Shown: positions 1,573-25,668, counted from the stretch's first letter. The stretch is 25,779 nt of DNA from Candidatus Eiseniibacteriota bacterium (GCA_043810925.1 JBDRNT010000121.1:1-25779), one strand, 5' to 3'. The notes: a model not told the origin generated them from the letters alone. Made by a program: numbers and translations.

Positions 1573-2661
1573 TTACTCCACCGGCTCAAACCTCACACGG
1601 TCCATCCTTCCCTTCGGACCGTCAAGATGGGTGAATCTCAGAGTACACCAGCCACCCGTCAACTCGAAGCGGCTGCTCCCGGCAGCCTCATGATACTCCT
1701 CAGTTCACCCAATGCCGGAGCCCTGATCGAGCAAGTAACTGTCCTCTTGAGGTAAAGGACCCGCGTCGATCACTGTGACTTGAACTTCAATTGAAAAACC
1801 AATGTTAGTCGAATACCAGACAGAAGCAATGTAGGTGCCGGTGCCGGGAACGCGCACGGGAACCTCCAGATACTCCCCGGCTATGTCTAGCCCCTCGACG
1901 GCGTGTTGCTTGCTGGCAGCTCCACAGTACGACACTGATATGCCATACCCGCCCAGATCAAGATGATCCGTGTAGTCCTCCAGTTCGACATCGAACGCCT
2001 TGGCCGCGCCGGCCACAAGCACTTTCGCCACTCCACTCTTCTCGGGACAGCTCACGCTTGTGGCCCGTACCATTAGATCGAAGGTGGAACCCGCGGCAAG
2101 AGGGGCGACATAGGTGCCGTTGGTTCTTATCGTCCCGATCGAGTCCGCATCCCCCGCCACGGCTGCGACCGACCACACTACCTCTGTGGTCGGACAGCCC
2201 GAGACTTCACTCGAAAACTCGATCGAATCCGCCACGAGCACAGTAGCCGTATCAGGGGTGACATTGACAAATGCCGTCGTGTCTTCCCTGGTGATAAAGA
2301 TCGTCGCCTCAGCCTCGACCGTTGCATCTTCCACCGCCACGGCCCTCAAGGTGACGGATGGTTGCACAAGTCCGAACAGAGAAGGCAGGCTATCCGGTGC
2401 AACATAGAGGCCTTCGGTCGTTATCATTCCTATCCACGGATCACCGCCCGGAATTCCGTTCACATACCATCTTACCTTGGGCCTATCGCCATCGTAGTCA
2501 ACGTCGAAGGTCCGGAAGCAGCTGATCTCAAGTGTCAGGGAATCGGGGATTATTACCAGCTGCAGCTGGGGACCGGGGCCCTTGTCATCACCACAATGAA
2601 GACCGAGCATTACGCCGCCGGCAAGTGCCAGAACACACACCAGTCTAAGCTTGCTCGTCAA
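1573..2661 (-). CDS. Exported lipoprotein with two Ig-like domains and a C-terminal CBM6/35-like beta-sandwich; in-frame TGA at 1707-1705, probably recoded (candidate selenocysteine); 362 aa if read through, 318 aa if not
   Basis: TTG start with AGGAGG SD and signal peptide 'MTSKLRLVCVLALAGGVMLGLH-C'. Two repeats of the 'V.W.V....G.I...G.YVAP' type. After TGA the frame reads TEEYHEAAGSSRFELTGGWCTLRFTHLDGPKGRMDRVRFEPVE-TAA (1575-1573). Confidence 0.75.
1671..1687 (-). promoter_or_regulatory. Putative bacterial SECIS element
   Basis: mRNA hairpin GGCUGC-CGGGA-GCAGCC starts 17 nt after the UGA. The apical loop is 23 nt from the UGA and has G at its second position. Confidence 0.6.
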
Positions 2662-2688
2662 CGTCGTCCTCCTGTTGCGGAGAACCTT

Positions 2689-4424: not shown

Positions 4425-5777
4425 ATGGAAAGGCGCGTATTCGAAGAGCACAGAAAGGGCGGGTATGCCGAGGTATGGCATATTGCCTACCCGGCGGTGC
4501 TCACGATGATAAGCCAGACTCTGATGAGCTTCACCGATGCCGTAATGGTCGGTCGCCTGGGTGCGGTCGAGATTGCGGGAGTCGGCCTGGCCGGCACGCT
4601 TGTCTGGGGGCTTTATTCGTTCTTCAACGGGCTGGTAAACGGGATAAACACATTTGTCGCCCAGGACTACGGCGCCAAGCGCTATCACAACATTGGTCCA
4701 ATGGCCTGGCAGGGGGTCTACCTCGCCGTATTCTCAGGCATCCTCCTTTTCGTGTTGAGCAGTTACAGCTCCCATCTTTTCAGATTGATGGGACCCGATG
4801 AGGCCGTCCAGACGGTCGGCTCATCCTACCTCAAGATCAGGATGCGGGGAGGCACGTTCATAGTCCTCTGGATGTGCTTCTCGGCGTTCATGCGAGGCCT
4901 GGGTGATACACGGACGCCACTTAAGATTACGGTGATGGCCAACCTCATAAACATCGTGGGCGACTACACCCTGATTTACGGTAAGCTCGGGTTTCCAAAA
5001 CTCGGGACCGATGGCGCGGCCATCGCGACGATCTTTGCGAACGGTGTGGGTGCCGCTGCGTTCTTCTGGGTCTTTCTCTCGGCCAGGCACTCGACCGACT
5101 ATTCGACCCGGACGGGATGGCGTCCCAGAGCGCAGTCGATGAGGAGGCTTGCCAGGATCGGTCTTCCGATCGGCCTGCAGTGGTTTCTCGATATGGGCAG
5201 CTTCGTAGTCTTCTCCGCAATGATCGGCAGGATAGGTACGAATGAACTAGCCGCCAATGAGGCTGCCATAAGACTGATGTCACTGTCATTCATGCCGGTG
5301 TTTGGTCTTTCGATAGCTGCGACCACACTTGTAGGACAGTACATCGGCTCGGACGAGATGCATCTTGCCGTGCGCAGCGGGAATTCCTCGCTGAGGATAG
5401 GGTTTTTCTACACGCTCTTCATAGCTTTCGTCTTTCTGATCTTTGCGGGCAGGCTTGTGTCGATAATAAATTCAGACCCGGAGGTCGTGCGCGTCGGGAG
5501 CGGTATTATAAGAGTGGTCGCGATCTTCCAGGTGTTTGACGGCTTCGGAATAGTGAGCAACGGTTGTCTTCGTGGTGCCGGTGATACCCGGTGGGCCATG
5601 TATATCGGTGTGGGCTATGCCTGGCTGCTGTTTGTGCCGCTGGCCTACATTGCAGGCTTTGTGCTCAAAGGAGGAGCGGTCGGGGCCTGGGCCGGGGCGA
5701 CCGTCTACATTATCACCCTCGGGCTCACGTTCTTCTTCAGATTCAGGAGCGGCAAGTGGCAGTCTATTAAGATATAG
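4425..5777 (+). CDS. MATE family efflux transporter (NorM/DinF-like)
   Basis: About 12 TM segments, with 'D.VMVGRLG', 'RGLGDTRTPL', 'NIVGDYTLIYGKLGFPKLG..GAAIAT', 'RIGLPIG' and 'LRGAGDTR'. Confidence 0.93.
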   Translation: MERRVFEEHRKGGYAEVWHIAYPAVLTMISQTLMSFTDAVMVGRLGAVEIAGVGLAGTLVWGLYSFFNGLVNGINTFVAQDYGAKRYHNIGPMAWQGVYLAVFSGILLFVLSSYSSHLFRLMGPDEAVQTVGSSYLKIRMRGGTFIVLWMCFSAFMRGLGDTRTPLKITVMANLINIVGDYTLIYGKLGFPKLGTDGAAIATIFANGVGAAAFFWVFLSARHSTDYSTRTGWRPRAQSMRRLARIGLPIGLQWFLDMGSFVVFSAMIGRIGTNELAANEAAIRLMSLSFMPVFGLSIAATTLVGQYIGSDEMHLAVRSGNSSLRIGFFYTLFIAFVFLIFAGRLVSIINSDPEVVRVGSGIIRVVAIFQVFDGFGIVSNGCLRGAGDTRWAMYIGVGYAWLLFVPLAYIAGFVLKGGAVGAWAGATVYIITLGLTFFFRFRSGKWQSIKI

Positions 5778-5811
5778 AACGCCGCTTGAAGATAGGTTAC
5801 TATGGACGCCG

Positions 5812-6933
5812 ATGTGTTCGATCACAGGTAAGATCAACATTCTCTATGTAACTCATGATACCGGCCTGATCGGTGGAGCCGAGCGGCAGCTGCTTGAGCT
5901 CTTGAAGGGCCTCGATCGGGACAGGTACGCCCCCCATCTGGTCTGTATTGAGGTAGGTGGTCTTGTTGCCGAGCGTGCACTCGAGATTGGAGTCCCCGTT
6001 CATCACGTAACCCGGAGTTGGAGATGGGACCTGGGTGTGGCCATGAGGCTCAGGCGTTTCATCAAGGACAAGCAGATCTCCATCGTACATGCGTACCTGG
6101 GTCTTCCGGGTTTCTATGGCGCGCTTGCAGGGAAACTCGGCGGGGCGAAGGTGATCACAACGATAAGGATCGCCGGACCGAGGATGCGCTTTACGGATGT
6201 AAGTGAACGGTTTGCCTTCTTGATATCCGACAGCATTCTATCCAACTCCAAGGCAGGCGCCGACTTCTATTTCAAACACTTTCCCGGCAGGCATAAGACC
6301 CGGGTGATCTATAACGGCTACAGGCTATCGGAATTCGACCGGACTGAAGCGGTGTCCCGGGCCGACCTTGGACTTCCCGAGGACAGTCTGGTGATCGGCC
6401 ACGTCGCAAACCTGACATATCTGAAGGACTACCCGACTTTCCTCCAGGCGCTCACGCGCGTCTTCCGCGCGGAACCCCGGGCTGCAGCGGTAATAGTCGG
6501 AGACGGGGCCAAGCGGGACGACTATGAGTCGCTTGCCGGGTCTCTGGGGATAAGCGACCGCACGCATTTCCTTGGTCACCGGCGTGATGTGCTCGGTCTC
6601 GTCATGACATTCGATGTCGGAGTACTCGCATCCCATCCGGACTACAGCGAAGGTCTTTCAAACAGCGTAGCGGAATACATGGGTATGTCAAAACCCGTTG
6701 TCGCAACCGATGTCGGTGGAAACTCGGAGCTGGTGGCCGACGGGGCAAGCGGCTTCTTGAGCCCCGCAGGCAAGCCCGAACCACTCAGCGACCGGATCAT
6801 CGATCTGCTTCGAAACCACGATCTCCGCCGGGATATGGGGAGACAGGGAAGGAAGTTCTTCGAGGAAAATCTCACCCTCGAGAGGATGGTAGACGAAACC
6901 CAGCGCGTCTATGAACGCCTGCTTGCGAGTTAG
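5812..6933 (+). CDS. Glycosyltransferase family 4 (GT-B)
   Basis: Motifs 'GGAERQL', 'VIYNG', 'K.Y.TFL' and 'EGLSNSVAEYMGMSKPVVATDVGGNSE'. The start is probably ATG 5812, because the ORF-track start at 5572 overlaps the MATE gene. Confidence 0.9.
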   Translation: MCSITGKINILYVTHDTGLIGGAERQLLELLKGLDRDRYAPHLVCIEVGGLVAERALEIGVPVHHVTRSWRWDLGVAMRLRRFIKDKQISIVHAYLGLPGFYGALAGKLGGAKVITTIRIAGPRMRFTDVSERFAFLISDSILSNSKAGADFYFKHFPGRHKTRVIYNGYRLSEFDRTEAVSRADLGLPEDSLVIGHVANLTYLKDYPTFLQALTRVFRAEPRAAAVIVGDGAKRDDYESLAGSLGISDRTHFLGHRRDVLGLVMTFDVGVLASHPDYSEGLSNSVAEYMGMSKPVVATDVGGNSELVADGASGFLSPAGKPEPLSDRIIDLLRNHDLRRDMGRQGRKFFEENLTLERMVDETQRVYERLLAS

Positions 6934-6935
6934 TA

Positions 6936-8432
6936 ATGTCCAAAGAATCAAACATGGGTCTTATCGTAAAGAACGCGGGCATCGACACCTTCGGCACCGG
7001 CATCAATATCATCATCACGTTCTTTGCAAGTGTTGTTATCACGCGGACCATCGGAGCTGAGCTCTTCGGCAAGTACTCCCTTGCCAACAGTATTTTTCAA
7101 GTCCTGAGCGTATTCGCGATCTTCGGTATGAACGCAGGTGTGGTCAAGCTCACTTCCAAGTATAATGCACGGCAGGATCCGCCGGCCGTGAAGGGCACGC
7201 TGATGAGCGGGATCGTGCTCACGGCCGCAATATCCGCCGTGATCGTGGTTGCGGTCGTTTTCCTCTCTCCGCTGCTGGCAACCAAGGTCTTCAGCAAGGC
7301 CGAGGGCCTGAGTCCGATTCTAAGGATCTTCATCATCGCACTTCCCTTTTATTCCCTTATGCTTGTGATCAACGGCTACACACAGGGCCTCAAGACGCTC
7401 AAGTACACTGTGCTGGTGGAATTGATCTCCCGTCCTTTGATCCGGCTTGCCGCAGTTGTACTGCTTTTCCTGATCGGGTGGAGATTGTTCGGTGTGATTG
7501 TTGGCACGATCTTCGCCTACGTCGTCGCCACGCTGATGGCATTCCATTTTGCCAAGAAGGTCTCCCCTTTCAATTTCAAACGCACCCGGGTCAGACCGGT
7601 CTACAATGAACTCTTCTTCTACTCTCTCCCGCTTGTGTTCTCACGTTTCATGAACGTGATCATGGCGAGATCGAACACCATACTGGTGGGTTATTTCGAG
7701 GACCCCACGAGCATCGGGCTCTTCGGCGCGGTCGCCCAGTTGGCCCCGTTCGTGTCACTGGGTCTTGTCTCCTTCACCAAGATCTTCTCACCGGTAATCG
7801 CCGACCTGTGGGAGCGGAACAATCTGGAGGAGCTCAAGAGCACTTTCAAGACCGTGTCAAAGTGGGTTTTCAGTATCGGGCTACCGGTCTTCATCGTCTT
7901 GATGGTTTTCGCCCCGTCGCTGCTGAGCGTTTTTGGTCCCGAGTTCGCCGGTGCGGCGACAACCCTGAGGCTGATGGCTGTCGGACAGATACTGACCGTG
8001 ATTATAGGTCCGCTTGGATATCTCCTGGCTATGACAGGTCGCCAGAAACTCAATCTGGTGAACGCCATTGCGCTTGCCGCCGTAAACGTTGTGCTCAACA
8101 TCGTGATGATTCCAAGATGGGGAATAGCCGGTGCAGGACTCGCAAGTACGATCTCGGTCGTTGCCATAAACCTCGCGAGACTGATTCAGGTCAAGCGGAT
8201 CTACGGTTTCACGCCGTTCAGACGAGACATCTATAAGCCCGCACTCGCCGCAGCCATCGCGGCGGCGGTTTTCTATTTCCTGAGACTCCAGCTGGGGTGG
8301 GAAGATATCGGTCGGACGCTGCTTCTCTCGGCAGCCTGCGTCGTCGTTTATGCCAGCCTCCTCTATGTCTTCGGACTGAGAGAAGAAAAAGAGATCCTTC
8401 TCGAAATCCTCAGACGCAGAAAGCGTGCGTAA
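6936..8432 (+). CDS. Polysaccharide flippase (Wzx/RfbX-like, MOP superfamily)
   Basis: Multi-TM protein with 'RTIGAELFGKYSLA', 'ELFFYSLPL', 'FGPEF..A...L' and 'LNIVMIPRWGIAGAGLAS'. It begins 2 nt after the GT4 stop. Confidence 0.88.
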   Translation: MSKESNMGLIVKNAGIDTFGTGINIIITFFASVVITRTIGAELFGKYSLANSIFQVLSVFAIFGMNAGVVKLTSKYNARQDPPAVKGTLMSGIVLTAAISAVIVVAVVFLSPLLATKVFSKAEGLSPILRIFIIALPFYSLMLVINGYTQGLKTLKYTVLVELISRPLIRLAAVVLLFLIGWRLFGVIVGTIFAYVVATLMAFHFAKKVSPFNFKRTRVRPVYNELFFYSLPLVFSRFMNVIMARSNTILVGYFEDPTSIGLFGAVAQLAPFVSLGLVSFTKIFSPVIADLWERNNLEELKSTFKTVSKWVFSIGLPVFIVLMVFAPSLLSVFGPEFAGAATTLRLMAVGQILTVIIGPLGYLLAMTGRQKLNLVNAIALAAVNVVLNIVMIPRWGIAGAGLASTISVVAINLARLIQVKRIYGFTPFRRDIYKPALAAAIAAAVFYFLRLQLGWEDIGRTLLLSAACVVVYASLLYVFGLREEKEILLEILRRRKRA

Positions 8433-16469: not shown

Positions 16470-17207
16470 CTACTCAAGCTGCCACGCCTTGTTGAAGAAG
16501 GCGCGGTGAATGAAGAACGAGGATACGAGTACGGCTATCGTACTGCTTGCCGCAAGCATGTACATCACTATGAGCTGTATCTTCGCGGCCTCAACGGGAG
16601 GTGCGCCCGCAAGCAGCATACCGGTCATCGCACCCGGCAGGTGTACAAGGCCTATGACCTTCATCGTGTTCATAAGAGGTAGGAGCGAGGCTCGCACCGA
16701 TCTCCTGGCGAGCGGCTCGATGGCCCTCCGCGGGGACGCCCCGAGACTCAAGGCGGTTTCGATCTCACCTCGTTTGTCCCTGACCTCGGATGAGATCCTG
16801 TCGAGGCCAAGCGATACGGCATTCATAGAGTTTCCGATCATCATTCCGCCAAGCGGGATAAGATACGTCGGTGACGTATCGATGATCCTCAAGGCCAGCA
16901 TCAGCCCGACCGTACAGGTGACCCCGGCGAGGATCGAGACGAAAGCTATGGTAAAGGCACCCTGGACGGACTTCGCCCTCCCTCTTGCCGTGAAGGCGGC
17001 CACGACCACCATCGTGAGAAGGAGAAGTACCTGGTACTGGAGCCGATCAAGGTCGAATACGAACTGGATGACATAGCCCACCGCCATGAGCTGTACGAAG
17101 GTTCTCAAGGTACCGATCAAGAGTTCCTTGCCCACGCCCAGCCGTCGTATTTCGATAATGGCTATGGCAATCCCGATAAGGGCAGTGGAGGCGATCAACC
17201 GGCTCAT
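16470..17207 (-). CDS. fetB: ABC transporter permease, FetB/YbbM (UPF0014) family
   Basis: 'R.FVQLMAVGYV', 'YLIPLGGMMIGNSMNA', 'IETALSLGASP', 'GLVHLPGAMTGMLLAG..P.EA...Q'. ATGA overlap with the upstream ATPase gene. Confidence 0.88.
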   Translation of the reverse strand: MSRLIASTALIGIAIAIIEIRRLGVGKELLIGTLRTFVQLMAVGYVIQFVFDLDRLQYQVLLLLTMVVVAAFTARGRAKSVQGAFTIAFVSILAGVTCTVGLMLALRIIDTSPTYLIPLGGMMIGNSMNAVSLGLDRISSEVRDKRGEIETALSLGASPRRAIEPLARRSVRASLLPLMNTMKVIGLVHLPGAMTGMLLAGAPPVEAAKIQLIVMYMLAASSTIAVLVSSFFIHRAFFNKAWQLE

Positions 17208-20411: not shown

Positions 20412-23357
20412 TTACTGCAGCAGAACCATCTTACGTGTCGCGGTTCCGGCTTCAGTCGTAACCACATAGTAATACACACCGCTGGCGACCCTTCGAGACC
20501 GCCGGTCGGTTCCATCCCACGGGATCTGGTGCGCTCCAGGAGAAGCAACACCCTCCCACAGGCGCGTTACCTGCCTGCCGTCGACAGAGACAACATCGAG
20601 CCTGAGCCATGTGGGTCTGGCCGCTTCAAATGCAATGCTCGTTGTCGCCTTGAACGGATTAGGGACATTCTGCAGAAGTCTGAGCTCGCCGGATCCATAA
20701 TCACGGCTGGAGATTTCCTCATCCCGGTAGAGGCCATAGGTCCCGAAACGGACGGCATGGGCAATCACGGTCCCCTTGCCCTCATCGACGTATGACTCGA
20801 GAGGAATCACCTGCCCATCTTCGACTCTTGCAATACATAGATGACGGGGATCACACACGCTCTGATCGTAGGCCATCGATATCGTGACCGCACCGTCGAG
20901 CTCATGCGCGGGCGGCGAGACCTTATATGCGGATATGAGCCCCTCGGTCGAAACGGGATCATCCATTATCACCACGTACATATCACCCGACACCGTGCCC
21001 GCCGGCAAAGCCACTTCAAGACATCCGTCAACGCTCCGCGCAACGCCGCCCGAACGGGCGAGAACCAGAGACGCGCCGAACGCACGGGCCTCTTGAGCCC
21101 AGTTGGAATTCAGGTCCCTCCCACAGGCTTCGATCCTGAGCAGACCGCCGGACTGGAGAGTGTAGTCGCACCTGAACACGCTTGTTCCGGGAACGGCCTC
21201 GGGTACGAGATCCTCATCGGGTTCAGGTACGTCCAGGCCGACCCTCACAAAGAAACTGCTATCTACTATCGCTTCAGACAGAGTGATATAGATATCGAGA
21301 TAACTCGTCAAGTACGGGTTCTGAAGAACTGAGATCGCCAGACCCGGAGGTACGAGATCCTGCGTGTACGCACTGTCACTGGCTATCGGGGAGTAATTGA
21401 TCATCTCATCAAACGCGGTGATGCAGTAGTAATAAGTCGTCTCGTTAATGAGCCCCGTGTGCGTGAAGCTGTCGGGCCAGGCGGGGATAGCGTCAAACAC
21501 ACCATTATTACCGTTCTCAACGGGCTGGCCGCCTGCAGGTGATGACAGCGGCCCGTCGGTCGAATAGGAGATCAAGACCCCTGTGAGATCGAGATCACTC
21601 GGACCGGTCCAGCCCAGAGTGACCGACCGGTCGCTTCCGGTAGCCGTGAAGGCTGAAACAGCGCCGGGCGGTACCGAATCTTCCGCGGTGGCCGAGGCAG
21701 TGACGGCTACCGAGTAGTTGGGAACGATGTCGCCTGCAAACGCCGAGTAGTAGTAGGTCACATCATTTTCAAGACGCGTATGCACAAAGCCGTCTGAGCT
21801 TGAGGGTGAATTGTGGAACTTCCCGCCGGCACCGTTTTCAACCGGTGTCCCGGCCGACGGATTCGCCGGATAGTCCGTCTCAGAGTAGACTATCAGCGTG
21901 TGCTCGAAATCCTCATCACCCGGATTCACCCAGCTTAAGGTCACCGTTGTATCACTTCCAACGGCACCGAAGGTTGAAGGAGCTGCGGGGGCGGCGGCGT
22001 CCCACACAACCCGCGCTCTTATACCGAGATCACGACCCAGAACCTGGTACCAGGTGTTGCCGTTGGGACTCTTGTAGGACTTCCCGGCGGCCTGCGTGCT
22101 CTGGTCGTCGGCCGGCAGGGGTTCTGCAAAAGTGGCATATGTGATCTTGGCCATCACGTATATGTCGTCTCCCGCGCCGATGCCCACGGGCGTGGTCAGT
22201 TCTACGGAGTGATAGCCCGGGTGCTCGAAAGACACGTTGAGCCGGTTTCCGAGAAGGTTCGTAAGCGAACCTCCGGTGAAATCGTCATAGACGTAGACAT
22301 CCACGTCCGTTATTTCATCGACCGCGAAGAACTCGACCCGTTCCACCGTACCGCTGCTGGCGGGTATGTACTTGCAGAAGCCCCACGCTGTGTTGCTGCC
22401 GGGATAGCCCTCCGCCATCGTGTAGCCGGCCTCGTCGTAGTGAAGCAGATCGCCGCTCGGATCATAGTCCTGCCACTCGTAGAGGAAAGAGGCCTCCTGC
22501 CCTATTTTCGCAGAACCATAGGCAATCGTGAAGTAGCCACCCTCGGTCCCATAGCCGCACGGGCCTCCCCATGACTTCCCCCAGCTGTTCTTGACGATCC
22601 AGGCACCCTGGCCCCCTGGATGGGTCAAGTCGTCATCCCACCCCACTATCACCACTGCATGATTGACCACATCGCCGCCCGGGTGGTAGAGCGTATAGGA
22701 ACCGTCATAGTTCGCAAACTCGTTGGCCCAGGCGTTGCCGTCACCCACATATATCGCGGTAAAAATCGGGCCGTGATCGTATATATATGACTTGAGCACC
22801 TCCTCATCGGGTGTCACGCTGTACGAGATCACCCGCCAGTCAAGAAGCGTCTTGATATGGTCGCAGTAATCCCTGCAGTTGAACTGTACGTAGGAAGCAT
22901 AGGGATCACACGATTCGAGCACGGTGCCTTGCTTGGAGAGGAAATTGGCAACTCTCCAGTAATTACCTCCCTGACAGGCGGAACCGTACCAATAACACTC
23001 CTTGACATTATTCTCGGAAAAGTCGTAGAGGCTTTCGCCGTCAATCAGGAGCTCGGATTCGAAATCGGCAAGGGCCGCAAAGGCAAAACATGTTCCGCAT
23101 GACCCCTGGTCCTGAACCAGGGTCACAACGCCCAGATCGCGCCAGTCGTACCTTGTCGGAAGAGGCAGAGTCGTTCTGGGCATCCTCCCGGCAGCAACGT
23201 CGGGATGGTCGAACTCCGGCGGGACATAGCCTCGCCCGTAGACGGGGGCGTCTGAAACGGACACCTGAGCGCGCGAACCCGATGCGGCACCAAACAAGAG
23301 ACCTGCAGCGAGTGCCAGGCCGATTGCAATGTGTATGTATCTACTTGATATATCCAT
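20412..23357 (-). CDS. Secreted papain-family (C1A) cysteine protease with lectin-like domain, two FN3-like repeats and C-terminal FlgD/T9SS-like domain
   Basis: Signal peptide, 'YDWR', 'QDQGSCGTCFAF', 'NHAVVIVGWDD', 'WIVKNSWG', and C-terminal 'QNVPNPF...WDG.D.....VASGVYYY.......TRKMVLLQ'. AAGGAG SD. Confidence 0.92.
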   Translation of the reverse strand: MDISSRYIHIAIGLALAAGLLFGAASGSRAQVSVSDAPVYGRGYVPPEFDHPDVAAGRMPRTTLPLPTRYDWRDLGVVTLVQDQGSCGTCFAFAALADFESELLIDGESLYDFSENNVKECYWYGSACQGGNYWRVANFLSKQGTVLESCDPYASYVQFNCRDYCDHIKTLLDWRVISYSVTPDEEVLKSYIYDHGPIFTAIYVGDGNAWANEFANYDGSYTLYHPGGDVVNHAVVIVGWDDDLTHPGGQGAWIVKNSWGKSWGGPCGYGTEGGYFTIAYGSAKIGQEASFLYEWQDYDPSGDLLHYDEAGYTMAEGYPGSNTAWGFCKYIPASSGTVERVEFFAVDEITDVDVYVYDDFTGGSLTNLLGNRLNVSFEHPGYHSVELTTPVGIGAGDDIYVMAKITYATFAEPLPADDQSTQAAGKSYKSPNGNTWYQVLGRDLGIRARVVWDAAAPAAPSTFGAVGSDTTVTLSWVNPGDEDFEHTLIVYSETDYPANPSAGTPVENGAGGKFHNSPSSSDGFVHTRLENDVTYYYSAFAGDIVPNYSVAVTASATAEDSVPPGAVSAFTATGSDRSVTLGWTGPSDLDLTGVLISYSTDGPLSSPAGGQPVENGNNGVFDAIPAWPDSFTHTGLINETTYYYCITAFDEMINYSPIASDSAYTQDLVPPGLAISVLQNPYLTSYLDIYITLSEAIVDSSFFVRVGLDVPEPDEDLVPEAVPGTSVFRCDYTLQSGGLLRIEACGRDLNSNWAQEARAFGASLVLARSGGVARSVDGCLEVALPAGTVSGDMYVVIMDDPVSTEGLISAYKVSPPAHELDGAVTISMAYDQSVCDPRHLCIARVEDGQVIPLESYVDEGKGTVIAHAVRFGTYGLYRDEEISSRDYGSGELRLLQNVPNPFKATTSIAFEAARPTWLRLDVVSVDGRQVTRLWEGVASPGAHQIPWDGTDRRSRRVASGVYYYVVTTEAGTATRKMVLLQ

Positions 23358-23517: not shown

Positions 23518-25668
23518 TTACTCGATCAGCACCAGCTTGGCGGTGTGAACCTCGTTTGATGTCACAAGTCTCGCAAAATAGAGACCGGGAGAAAGCCTTG
23601 TGTCGGCACCCGCGCCCGGTTCCCATGTGGCCGAGTGCGGACCTCCGTCTGAGTAGCCCTCTTTGAGGATGGCGACTCGTCTGCCTGTAACATCAAAGAC
23701 CTCAAGCCGTATCCAGTCGGGCCGAGCAAGCTCAAACCGTATCGCGAAGCCGTCACGTGCCGGATTCGGCTCAGGTATTTCAAGGAGCGTTTTGGGCGCA
23801 CTTTCCGGAGCTGACTCACCGGCCTTTGCATGGTCCGTCGGACGCGTGCGCGGGAGCATTCCAAGGTCATCCACCGAGCAACCCCGGTCCACAGGTGAAT
23901 CGAAATGCTCCCTGATATCCCCGGTATGTGCGGTAATGCAGTAGTAGGTCCAGCATGAGTCCGATCCCGTGGAGTCGCAGTGTGTCGCGGCGGTGAAGTC
24001 ATAGCAGCAGTTGCCTGTGGCAGCCACCGTTGCCAGCAATTCCCACACAGGGCCTTCCTCACCATGCTCGTAGGGACCGCCTGTGACGTAGTTCGCGGCC
24101 AGAAGCGTCGGGAGTGTCTCTATCCGTTTTCTCCAGACCTTGTAGCGCACTACCTCCGGAACGGAACCCTCGCTGTCATAGAGGCTTCTCCTCCACTCCA
24201 GATCAACGTAACCTCCGTTATCGGCCGGCACATCGATGACGCTCACAATCGCAGGTGTCTCTATGATCACGCCGCAGGAGGCATCATCGGTCACGCGCAG
24301 ACGTATGCCAAGGTCGCCACCAGCCCATGCGGAGTACGACGCACCTGTGGCACTTATGTGGCAGTAACCTGCGGCCGGGGGACCGGCATTGTCGAAGGCA
24401 AGCGGATACGTATAGGAGTTGTCCGTGATTTTGACCACTGCATATATGTCCTCCCCGGAAGCGACCTCAAGCGGCTCGGAGAGTTCGACCGAGTGGTAAC
24501 CCGGAAGCGAGAAGGAACTGTTGAGTCTGCTCGCGAGCAGGTTCGAAGGAGAGACTCCGCTAAAGTCGTCGTAGATGAAGACATCTATATCCGTCGTTGT
24601 ATCAAGCGTCCAGAACTCCACCCTCTCTACAAGGATATCCTCGGTCGCGATGAACTTGCAGAGACCCCATGCGGTGGTAAGACCGTAGCCCACGGCTGAG
24701 GTGTAGCCGCCATCATCATGATAAAGCAGCGAGCCGTCGGGATCGTAGTTCTGCCAGTCATATAGGAATGAAGAGTAGGATCCGATTTTGGCGGAACCGT
24801 ATGCGATGTAGAAATAGCCGCCTTCGGCCCCGTAACCGCAGGTGCCGCCCCAGGAGGTTCCCCAGCTGTTCTTGACGATCCATGCCCCCGAGCCGCCAGG
24901 ATGGGTCTGGCTGTCGTCCCAGCCGACTATGAGGACTGCATGGTTGGTCAGTTCCGACCCGGTATGGTAGAGCACGTAGGAGCCGTCGTAGGCGTTCATT
25001 TCTGAGTGCCATGCATCATAGAACCCCGCGTACATCGAAGTGTAGAGCGGGCCGTATGTCTGGAGATAGGACTTGATCACATTCGTCGCGGGTACATCAC
25101 TGGACGATATAACCTGCCAGTCAAGCAGCGTCTTCGCATAGGCGCACGCACCGTTGCATGCGACGTCGCTTGCGACGTATGGGTCGCAGGCTTCAAGGAC
25201 GGTGCCGTTGGCTGCAAGAAAGCTGGCAACCCGCCAGTAGTTACCTCCGCCGCAACTTGATTCGTGCCACTCACACTCTTTGGCGTTGTTCTCCGAGAAG
25301 TTGAATGTGCTTCCACCGTCAACGAGCATCTTCGATTCGAAGTTACCGATCGAAGCAAACGCGTAGCACGAACCGCACGTTCCCTGGTTCTTAACCGGCG
25401 TTACCTTGCCCGTAACTCGCCAGTCAAAGGTTGAAAGCAGAGGAGCCGGATGCTTGGCCATCGGCGCGCTTATATGCGATAGGTCCCCGGGCGGAGGGAC
25501 AAAGCCGTTACTGTAGAACCCATCAGGCACGGTCTCGATTTTTTCAGGTGCGACCCGGGGAAGAGGATCACCCGCATACACGGGAATCGAGAAGCCCACT
25601 CCGATAGCTACGATGATCAACAGTATTAGCCCGATGGGGCAGTGGTTTCCATGTTTGCATTTCCGCAT
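23518..25668 (-). CDS. Second secreted papain-family (C1A) cysteine protease with lectin-like domain and C-terminal T9SS-like domain
   Basis: Signal peptide, 'FDWR..GKVTPVKNQGTCGSCYAF', 'NHAVLIVGWDD', 'WIVKNSWG', and C-terminal 'PNP....IRF....VFDVTGRRVA...PGLYFARL.......KLVLIE'. GAGGAG SD. Confidence 0.92.
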   Translation of the reverse strand: MRKCKHGNHCPIGLILLIIVAIGVGFSIPVYAGDPLPRVAPEKIETVPDGFYSNGFVPPPGDLSHISAPMAKHPAPLLSTFDWRVTGKVTPVKNQGTCGSCYAFASIGNFESKMLVDGGSTFNFSENNAKECEWHESSCGGGNYWRVASFLAANGTVLEACDPYVASDVACNGACAYAKTLLDWQVISSSDVPATNVIKSYLQTYGPLYTSMYAGFYDAWHSEMNAYDGSYVLYHTGSELTNHAVLIVGWDDSQTHPGGSGAWIVKNSWGTSWGGTCGYGAEGGYFYIAYGSAKIGSYSSFLYDWQNYDPDGSLLYHDDGGYTSAVGYGLTTAWGLCKFIATEDILVERVEFWTLDTTTDIDVFIYDDFSGVSPSNLLASRLNSSFSLPGYHSVELSEPLEVASGEDIYAVVKITDNSYTYPLAFDNAGPPAAGYCHISATGASYSAWAGGDLGIRLRVTDDASCGVIIETPAIVSVIDVPADNGGYVDLEWRRSLYDSEGSVPEVVRYKVWRKRIETLPTLLAANYVTGGPYEHGEEGPVWELLATVAATGNCCYDFTAATHCDSTGSDSCWTYYCITAHTGDIREHFDSPVDRGCSVDDLGMLPRTRPTDHAKAGESAPESAPKTLLEIPEPNPARDGFAIRFELARPDWIRLEVFDVTGRRVAILKEGYSDGGPHSATWEPGAGADTRLSPGLYFARLVTSNEVHTAKLVLIE

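Follow-up and report, generated by a model that had tools for sequence, protein, structure and literature searches.

A candidate family of exported selenoproteins with a CBM6/CBM35-like domain in Candidatus Eiseniibacteriota

A gene on the minus strand of a 25,779-nucleotide (nt) stretch of DNA from a Candidatus Eiseniibacteriota bacterium (GCA_043810925.1 JBDRNT010000121.1:1-25779; hereafter the window, meaning this whole stretch) raises the question of whether its in-frame UGA is a stop codon or is decoded as selenocysteine (Sec). The genome to which the window belongs, as contig C121, measures 3.85 Mb and is 91.7% complete. The open reading frame of 318 amino acids at 1705-2661(-) starts with TTG at 2661 and has the C-terminus ...YLLDQGSGIG, which is followed by TGA at 1707-1705. 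When this TGA is read through, the frame continues for 43 further sense codons (TEEYHEAAGSSRFELTGGWCTLRFTHLDGPKGRMDRVRFEPVE) before TAA at 1575-1573, giving 362 residues in total and the peptide ...GSGIG-U-TEEYHEAAGSSR across the UGA. The original prediction, made from this sequence alone, had described the frame and its extension, all of which are present, and had proposed that the UGA is read as Sec in an exported lipoprotein. Comparative sequence evidence makes it very likely that the gene at 1573-2661(-) specifies an exported selenoprotein of 362 residues, for which the UGA would be decoded by SelB and the Sec tRNA under the direction of a hairpin: the TGA is conserved, the frame downstream shows signs of selection, the putative Sec insertion element covaries, the decoding machinery is encoded in the genome, and forms with cysteine (Cys) at the same position exist. 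The features of the gene are the following.

2668..2673 (-): Shine-Dalgarno-like AGGAGG, 6 nt 5' of the TTG start, from direct reading of the sequence
2593..2661 (-): TTG start and predicted lipoprotein-type signal peptide, residues 1-23, with LGLH preceding CG (Cys23-Gly24) and a helix at 4-20 in the model
2287..2565 (-): predicted immunoglobulin (Ig)-like beta-sandwich domain 1, about residues 33-125, with strands within 36-124
2008..2274 (-): predicted Ig-like beta-sandwich domain 2, about residues 130-218, with strands within 131-218
1576..2004 (-): predicted Sec-containing beta-sandwich resembling carbohydrate-binding module (CBM) families CBM6 and CBM35, residues 220-362, spanning the UGA
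1924..1926 (-): Cys246 codon TGT, domain position 27, in the motif SYCGAAS, 73 residues before Sec and its proposed partner
1705..1707 (-): in-frame UGA, putative Sec codon, residue 319, in the motif D-x-G-x-G-x-G-U; a conserved column, with TGC in locus L065
1671..1687 (-): putative Sec insertion sequence (SECIS) hairpin GGCUGC-CGGGA-GCAGCC, also encoding (E)AAGSS
1576..1704 (-): 43-codon extension, predicted to form the last three sandwich strands (E105-115, E118-128 and E132-141 of the domain model)
1573..1575 (-): true stop TAA, from direct reading of the sequence

TGA is an ordinary stop in the organism from which the window comes. The ATGA overlap at 17204-17207(-) that had been cited for this is present, with the TGA closing an ABC ATPase gene and overlapping the ATG of a UPF0014 gene, and genome-wide, frames of at least 400 codons end in TGA more often than in either other stop (496 TGA, 438 TAG and 266 TAA; n = 1200). 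The genome also holds the machinery for inserting Sec, with all of selA, selB, selC and selD represented: SelA was found at 507 bits, SelB at 376 bits (above the model cutoff) and the Sec tRNA at 74 bits, along with two SelD genes, one of which has an in-frame TGA of its own. SelA was found in 18 of 19 genomes with the TGA form of the family described here, the exception being G012, which is 57% complete.

The Sec-type selD (G000:C89:56288-57423) has its in-frame TGA within the motif CAGU, and the Sec tRNA gene lies about 120 nt downstream of it. The second SelD is a Cys-type, SelD-like region within a 738-residue frame on contig C38.

We searched 61 related genomes in six frames with the read-through product as the query and obtained matches in 20 of them. 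Each match that extended into the C-terminal ~145 residues had one TGA and no more; those restricted to the N-terminal Ig-like part had no TGA. A phylum-wide profile search then found the domain in all 18 species genomes available, at 1-5 copies each, with one TGA in each of the 44 domain matches at E <= 1e-8 (44/44). Within a sample of 401 genomes, one TGA was likewise present in each of 48 matches at E <= 1e-12 (48/48); these came from 21 carriers, namely the 18 phylum genomes and three genomes from two other families (G052, G104 and G264). The family is thus present in 18/18 genomes of the phylum and in a few other lineages, and its Cys forms are rarer. The TGA occupies a single alignment column, with the motif D-x-G-x-G-x-G-U, in sets of 21 and then 41 aligned copies; both sets were pre-selected for TGA-containing frames, and the unbiased counts are the 44/44 and 48/48 given above. 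No homologue among the 48 has tryptophan (Trp) at this column or ends there with TAA or TAG, either of which would have spoken against Sec, and a Cys codon, TGC, stands at the column in L065, so that the comparison the original prediction had called for came out in favor of Sec. Identities among homologues range from 26 to 65%, and in 6 of the 41 genes TGA apparently also serves as the true terminator after the domain.

In public protein collections, all 15 orthologues are 278-321 amino acids in length, span no more than 88% of the read-through query and, where named, are called "hypothetical protein"; none of these 15 has any Pfam domain. Because public orthologues are cut at the UGA and named in this way, the family is invisible to current annotation. 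A homologue search with the C-terminal domain alone as the query returned no match.

The 43 codons after the UGA are under purifying selection. The ratio of nonsynonymous to synonymous substitution rates (dN/dS) was 0.06-0.46 across 39 post-UGA codons in seven pairs, while an eighth pair, the window against L026, contains an indel and is not interpretable. The motifs Y..AAGSS, G.C.LR and D..F are kept 3' of the UGA. All three final strands of the C-terminal sandwich derive from the extension in a confident AlphaFold2 model of the domain, which has 11 strands and a predicted local distance difference test (pLDDT) score of 95.9; this model requires the extension. The proposal that a conserved downstream frame supplies the missing last strands of the domain therefore held on both counts.

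The hairpin that follows the UGA is, on comparison of its natural variants, strongly supported as a SECIS element. Its 5' arm GGCUGC (1687-1682), loop CGGGA (1681-1677) and 3' arm GCAGCC (1676-1671) begin 17 nt after the UGA, and the perfect stem of 6 base pairs (bp) that had been noted there is confirmed in the sequence. In PMC13188914, the bacterial SECIS (bSECIS) model specifies a loop of 3-9 nt with a G in its first two positions, a stem of 4-16 bp, 16-37 nt from the UGA to the loop and a minimum free energy <= -7.5 kcal/mol. The hairpin lies within all of these limits: its loop has 5 nt and a G at the second position, its stem has 6 bp, the loop lies 23 nt from the UGA, and the 17-nt hairpin alone folds at -9.6 kcal/mol. 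Among the 41 aligned copies the CGGGA loop hardly varies, and substitutions in the stem are compensatory; the stem occurs as GCUGC/GCAGC (encoding AAGSS), GUCGC/GCGAC (VAGSD), GCCAC/GUGGC (ATGGG), GCCGC/GCGGC and GCUAC/GUAGC. In this alignment 93.3% of cells are paired, both partners have changed in five of the six pairs, and double changes occur in 56 cells. Covariation scored 0.549, compared with 0.242 in shuffled alignments; none of 500 shuffles reached this value, and six slid registers all scored far below the true one. A covarying hairpin, the sign that the original prediction had said to look for, is thus present.

We found only 388 hairpins of at least 5 bp with a CGGGN loop on both strands of the 3.85-Mb genome, and the expected number of such hairpins per 22-nt spacing window is about 0.001. 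An in-frame TGA followed by a CGGGN hairpin occurs in 29 cases genome-wide, of which only SelD and two genes of this family resemble real genes; this genome-wide scan found no further selenoproteins. The SECIS of SelD in the same genome (G000:C89) resembles the hairpin studied here in lying 3' of the UGA, in having a 5-nt CGGGN loop closed by C:G pairs and in its spacing to the loop (16 nt, versus 23 nt in the family gene). It differs in its stem, which has another sequence and 7 rather than 6 bp, and in its last loop base, which is U and not A. With their fixed CGGGN-type loop, the 41 natural variants would be useful for defining SelB recognition in this lineage.

Cys forms were found among 1.84 billion representative proteins searched with the profile; the search gave 1129 matches at E <= 0.001, of which the best 150 were examined. 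Among these best 150, 54 domain matches stop at the end of the protein, at profile positions 97-100, and are therefore gene calls cut at the UGA; eight are short proteins (177-206 amino acids) with G-x-G-x-G-C; and the others are long multi-domain proteins. Within one subfamily, the column holds TGC in L065 and TGA in L066 and L067. As leads only, a natural Cys-form protein matched nothing in the protein atlas but unnamed clusters, in which the commonest taxon was Candidatus Poribacteria, and CBM_6 clusters that scored <0.9.

The product is predicted to consist of four parts: a signal peptide that contains an invariant Cys-Gly, a pair of Ig-like domains, and a CBM6/CBM35-type sandwich with Sec in a glycine-rich loop. 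Cys23-Gly24, which follows a hydrophobic stretch, is invariant in 12/12 orthologues and suggests lipidation, and a low-confidence linker follows the signal helix at residues 18-30 of the full-length model (pLDDT 85.9). At the position before the Cys, H, N, S, Q, G or R stands in place of the canonical small residue; the lipoprotein label relies on the invariant Cys-Gly. For the N-terminal part, Foldseek matched tandem Ig/Big domains, such as LigA 8gyr, and cadherins, and residues 134-165 have a sub-threshold match to Pfam I-set (E 0.0046). The C-terminal sandwich, at residues 223-360 of the full-length model, matched CBM35 (2w1w and 2w47) and CBM6 (2cdo and 1gmm) in Foldseek, with template modelling (TM) scores of 0.64-0.77 and E values of 4e-7 to 1e-5. 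At the profile level, the family profile matched the Clostridium thermocellum CBM35 2w47 in the PDB (E 6.5e-4), hhalign against canonical CBM6 repeats gave a probability of 99.2% (E 1e-19), and the distant matches of the profile in long proteins are Pfam CBM_6/CBM_35 repeats. Pfam itself gave CBM_35 at E 0.14, with 12.9 bits where the cutoff is 28, and no CBM_6 match for the domain. The assignment to a divergent CBM6/CBM35 sandwich, as originally put forward, therefore holds at the level of predicted fold and profile and falls below the Pfam threshold.

The domain shares with CBM6/CBM35 (PF03422, PF16990) the beta-sandwich, the E-x-E start, G-E/D-W-I-E, G-x-Y and the D-x-x-F end. It differs in having no attached glycoside hydrolase, in a 'TGGW' loop that is enlarged to D-x-G-x-G-x-G-U and carries the putative Sec, in reading 'r-l-D' for 'N-l-D', and in a further Cys, also conserved, that precedes the 'ASG' motif. 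The glycine-rich Sec loop would thus be an enlarged form of the canonical 'TGGW' loop; hhalign places Sec within a 5-residue insertion directly after it. An origin of the TGA from the TGG of the canonical Trp is not supported, as HMMER places Sec one residue before the Trp and hhalign in the insertion after it. SoxY and the N-terminal domain of DsbD are also sandwiches of the Ig-like type, located in the periplasm, and each exposes a reactive Cys. The reactive Cys of SoxY lies in a glycine-rich 'GGCGG', and some family variants with C-x-U read GGCGU, which we note as a lead only; the SoxY Cys is C-terminal, whereas the putative Sec of the family lies in an internal loop. No sequence or profile relationship was found between SoxY or DsbD and the family domain, and these proteins may serve only as a lead, by analogy, to how the domain might work.

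The Cys proposed as the partner of Sec, Cys246 in 'SYCGAAS', is present in 38/41 copies and in 8/8 Cys-form proteins. The three remaining copies have C-x-U instead (GGCGU or NSCTU), which argues that Sec needs a Cys partner. The pairing of the two residues, suggested when the gene was first described, is thus favored indirectly, by this pattern of conservation. It is quite possible that Sec and the Cys 73 residues upstream, or the Cys of C-x-U, form a reversible selenylsulfide that makes a surface redox or ligand-capturing site. The ligand might be a thiol, a chalcogen or a soft metal, held at the former ligand-binding end of the lectin-like scaffold. More tentatively, a lectin-type CBM6/CBM35 scaffold may have been turned into a surface selenol device that is a universal, multi-copy envelope component of this candidate phylum.

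In the most distant family of the phylum, L037 (G017:C6:46350-50219) and L038 (G016:C171) have C-x-U in place of the distant Cys. Their hairpin lies 6 nt farther from the UGA, the domain ends far larger proteins (frames of 508-807 amino acids), and two Sec domains are encoded near each other on one contig. A second Cys pair (G-C-G... and G.C.LR) is present in the majority of long-form orthologues; the window protein has Ala at the first site ('VIDAGPL'), leaving Cys339 ('GGWCTLRF') unpaired.

The main rival on function is that the protein is an ordinary carbohydrate-binding lectin in which a Cys-Sec bond is merely a structural staple of the loop, with no redox or capture role. The CBM6/CBM35 core and its E-x-E ... 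D residues are retained, the short paralogue of the gene adjoins an envelope-polysaccharide cluster in 14 loci, and the window itself has GT1 and flippase genes, all of which would fit a lectin. A structural bond, however, is not known to require costly Sec, and Sec forms far outnumber Cys forms (48/48 in genomes). The canonical 'TGGW' and 'N-l-D' positions, which take part in sugar binding by CBM6/CBM35, are moreover remodelled in the family. We consider the plain lectin unlikely, and a Cys-Sec redox or capture site at the surface most likely as judged from these sequence patterns.

The remaining rivals concern the decoding itself. The best of them, which we consider very unlikely, is that the UGA acts mainly as a stop, so that the 318-residue product is functional and the hairpin is regulatory or terminator-like, or that selenium sets a mixture of the two products. 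Bacterial Sec insertion competes with release factor 2, and some truncated product is accordingly expected; in addition, we detected no intrinsic terminator 3' of the true stop. A purely regulatory hairpin would nevertheless leave the amino-acid-level selection on all 43 codons downstream unexplained, the Cys forms encode the same domain uninterrupted, and the truncated form would fold incompletely. The version with two products is compatible with Sec decoding and is not a true rival to it. Still less probable is reading of the UGA by other means, that is, an altered code (Trp or Gly) or near-cognate insertion of Trp, Cys or Arg. In its favor, canonical CBM6/CBM35 domains have a Trp in the adjacent 'TGGW' loop, and TGG is one step from TGA. 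Against it, TGA is the commonest stop of long frames, closes genes of the window and apparently terminates six members of the family itself; exactly one TGA occurs per domain, always with the covarying hairpin, whose loop is that of the SelD SECIS; relatives have Cys and not Trp at the column; and the profile alignment sets Sec in the 5-residue insertion after the Trp position. Finally, a nonsense mutation, pseudogene lesion or assembly error that leaves a truncated or dead product has next to no probability, for although all public gene calls stop at the UGA (15/15 orthologues, 278-321 amino acids), the identical TGA recurs in 48/48 domains of 21 independently assembled genomes, purifying selection continues after it, the truncated product would be without three sandwich strands, and identities of 26-65% exclude a single contaminant as the source.

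Several observations count against Sec decoding and the role proposed for it. The 76 nt around the UGA fold unexceptionally (z = 0.23), so the fold energy of a single sequence proves nothing. The codons of the stem also encode conserved residues (AAGSS or VAGSD), and part of the conservation could be at the protein level; compensatory changes that alter the amino acids, such as AAGSS to ATGGG, argue that it is not only that. A genome with the Cys form also encodes SelA, on which ground we rejected the idea that the Cys forms are a sign of a lost Sec trait. Lastly, neither a redox partner nor a catalytic domain was identified, and the neighbors of the long form (HAL and MgtE) and of the short form (a GT4 gene and a Cys-rich secreted protein) gave no informative operon. 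In the favored reading, the CGGGA-loop hairpin 17 nt past the UGA directs Sec decoding while its bases double as the AAGSS codons.

As far as our searches show, the family is undescribed. None of the 119 prokaryotic selenoprotein families in Table 1 of PMC13188914 (2026) is CBM-like, and the accessible parts of the deep-Sep (PMC12013277) and BSepDB (PMC13326102) papers do not mention a CBM-like family. A full-text literature search combining selenocysteine or selenoprotein with carbohydrate-binding terms returned nothing relevant, with no CBM reported to contain Sec. NCBIfam gave 0 families at E <= 1 for the window protein, and the families of Haft & Tolstoy 2025 were covered through NCBIfam models only. 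The exported selenoproteins in Table 1 of PMC13188914 comprise the FCYXU-type TonB-dependent receptor, the DUF1573 'UGC' protein, the GSU2204/MtrB-like barrel and DsbA/DsbG-like proteins. They are like the present family in having a single Sec and in having been predicted on the same grounds (conserved TGA, SECIS and Cys homologues), but none shares its fold or motif, and NCBIfam, which holds their models, gives 0 matches. BSepDB looks for previously reported families only, and deep-Sep demands Cys-containing homologues among the top matches of a candidate; the Cys forms of this family are rare, and it is invisible to these catalogues.

If the proposed reading is true, this would be the first selenoprotein on a carbohydrate-binding-module fold, and among very few whose Sec acts at the cell surface and not as part of a redox enzyme of the cytoplasm or periplasm. 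Sec biology would gain a fold class, a beta-sandwich of lectin type that has no enzyme domain, and the presence of the family in 18/18 genomes would point to selenium-dependent surface chemistry in an uncultured phylum.

The long form lies in a conserved order between an aromatic-amino-acid lyase (HAL) and MgtE, with the lyase flanking it in 13 loci and MgtE in nine. Across these loci the flanking genes are 64-96% identical and the Sec gene 36-65%, a pattern commonly seen for surface proteins that evolve fast. Immediately upstream of the lyase, at 4425-8432(+) of the window, are genes for a MatE efflux protein, a GT1 glycosyltransferase and a Wzx-like polysaccharide flippase, which places the long form, too, near genes for envelope polysaccharide.

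A second copy of the family in the same genome (G000:C60:15723-16394(-)) is a short paralogue of about 200 amino acids with a single domain. On one side it is flanked in 14 loci by a GT4 glycosyl-phosphate transferase that ends a sugar-nucleotide gene cluster, and on the other in eight loci by a conserved Cys-rich secreted protein. This Cys-rich neighbor (L068:7549-8391(-), the same contig as G000:C60), upstream of the short paralogue, has 280 amino acids and no Pfam family, and could be a partner or substrate of the paralogue. The free-standing short paralogue would do the same job as the long form and would be sorted by its C-terminal tail, WGxIKxLYR.

This tail, approximately (A)TEP(S/T)TWGxIKx(L/M)(Y/F)R-COOH, is shared by 56 of the 11619 frames of at least 100 amino acids in G000, among them the short Sec paralogue, and is carried by the Cys-form homologues as well; the gene in the window is without it. 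The tail has no transmembrane helix, and several of its carriers have a Cys-rich 'PGNHPDGYDCGLIGAWG.GC.CG' module immediately before it. It resembles a tag for sorting or anchoring that is specific to the lineage. Elsewhere in the window, two large tandem proteins at 20412-23357(-) and 23518-25668(-) each combine a papain-family cysteine protease with a lectin-like domain.

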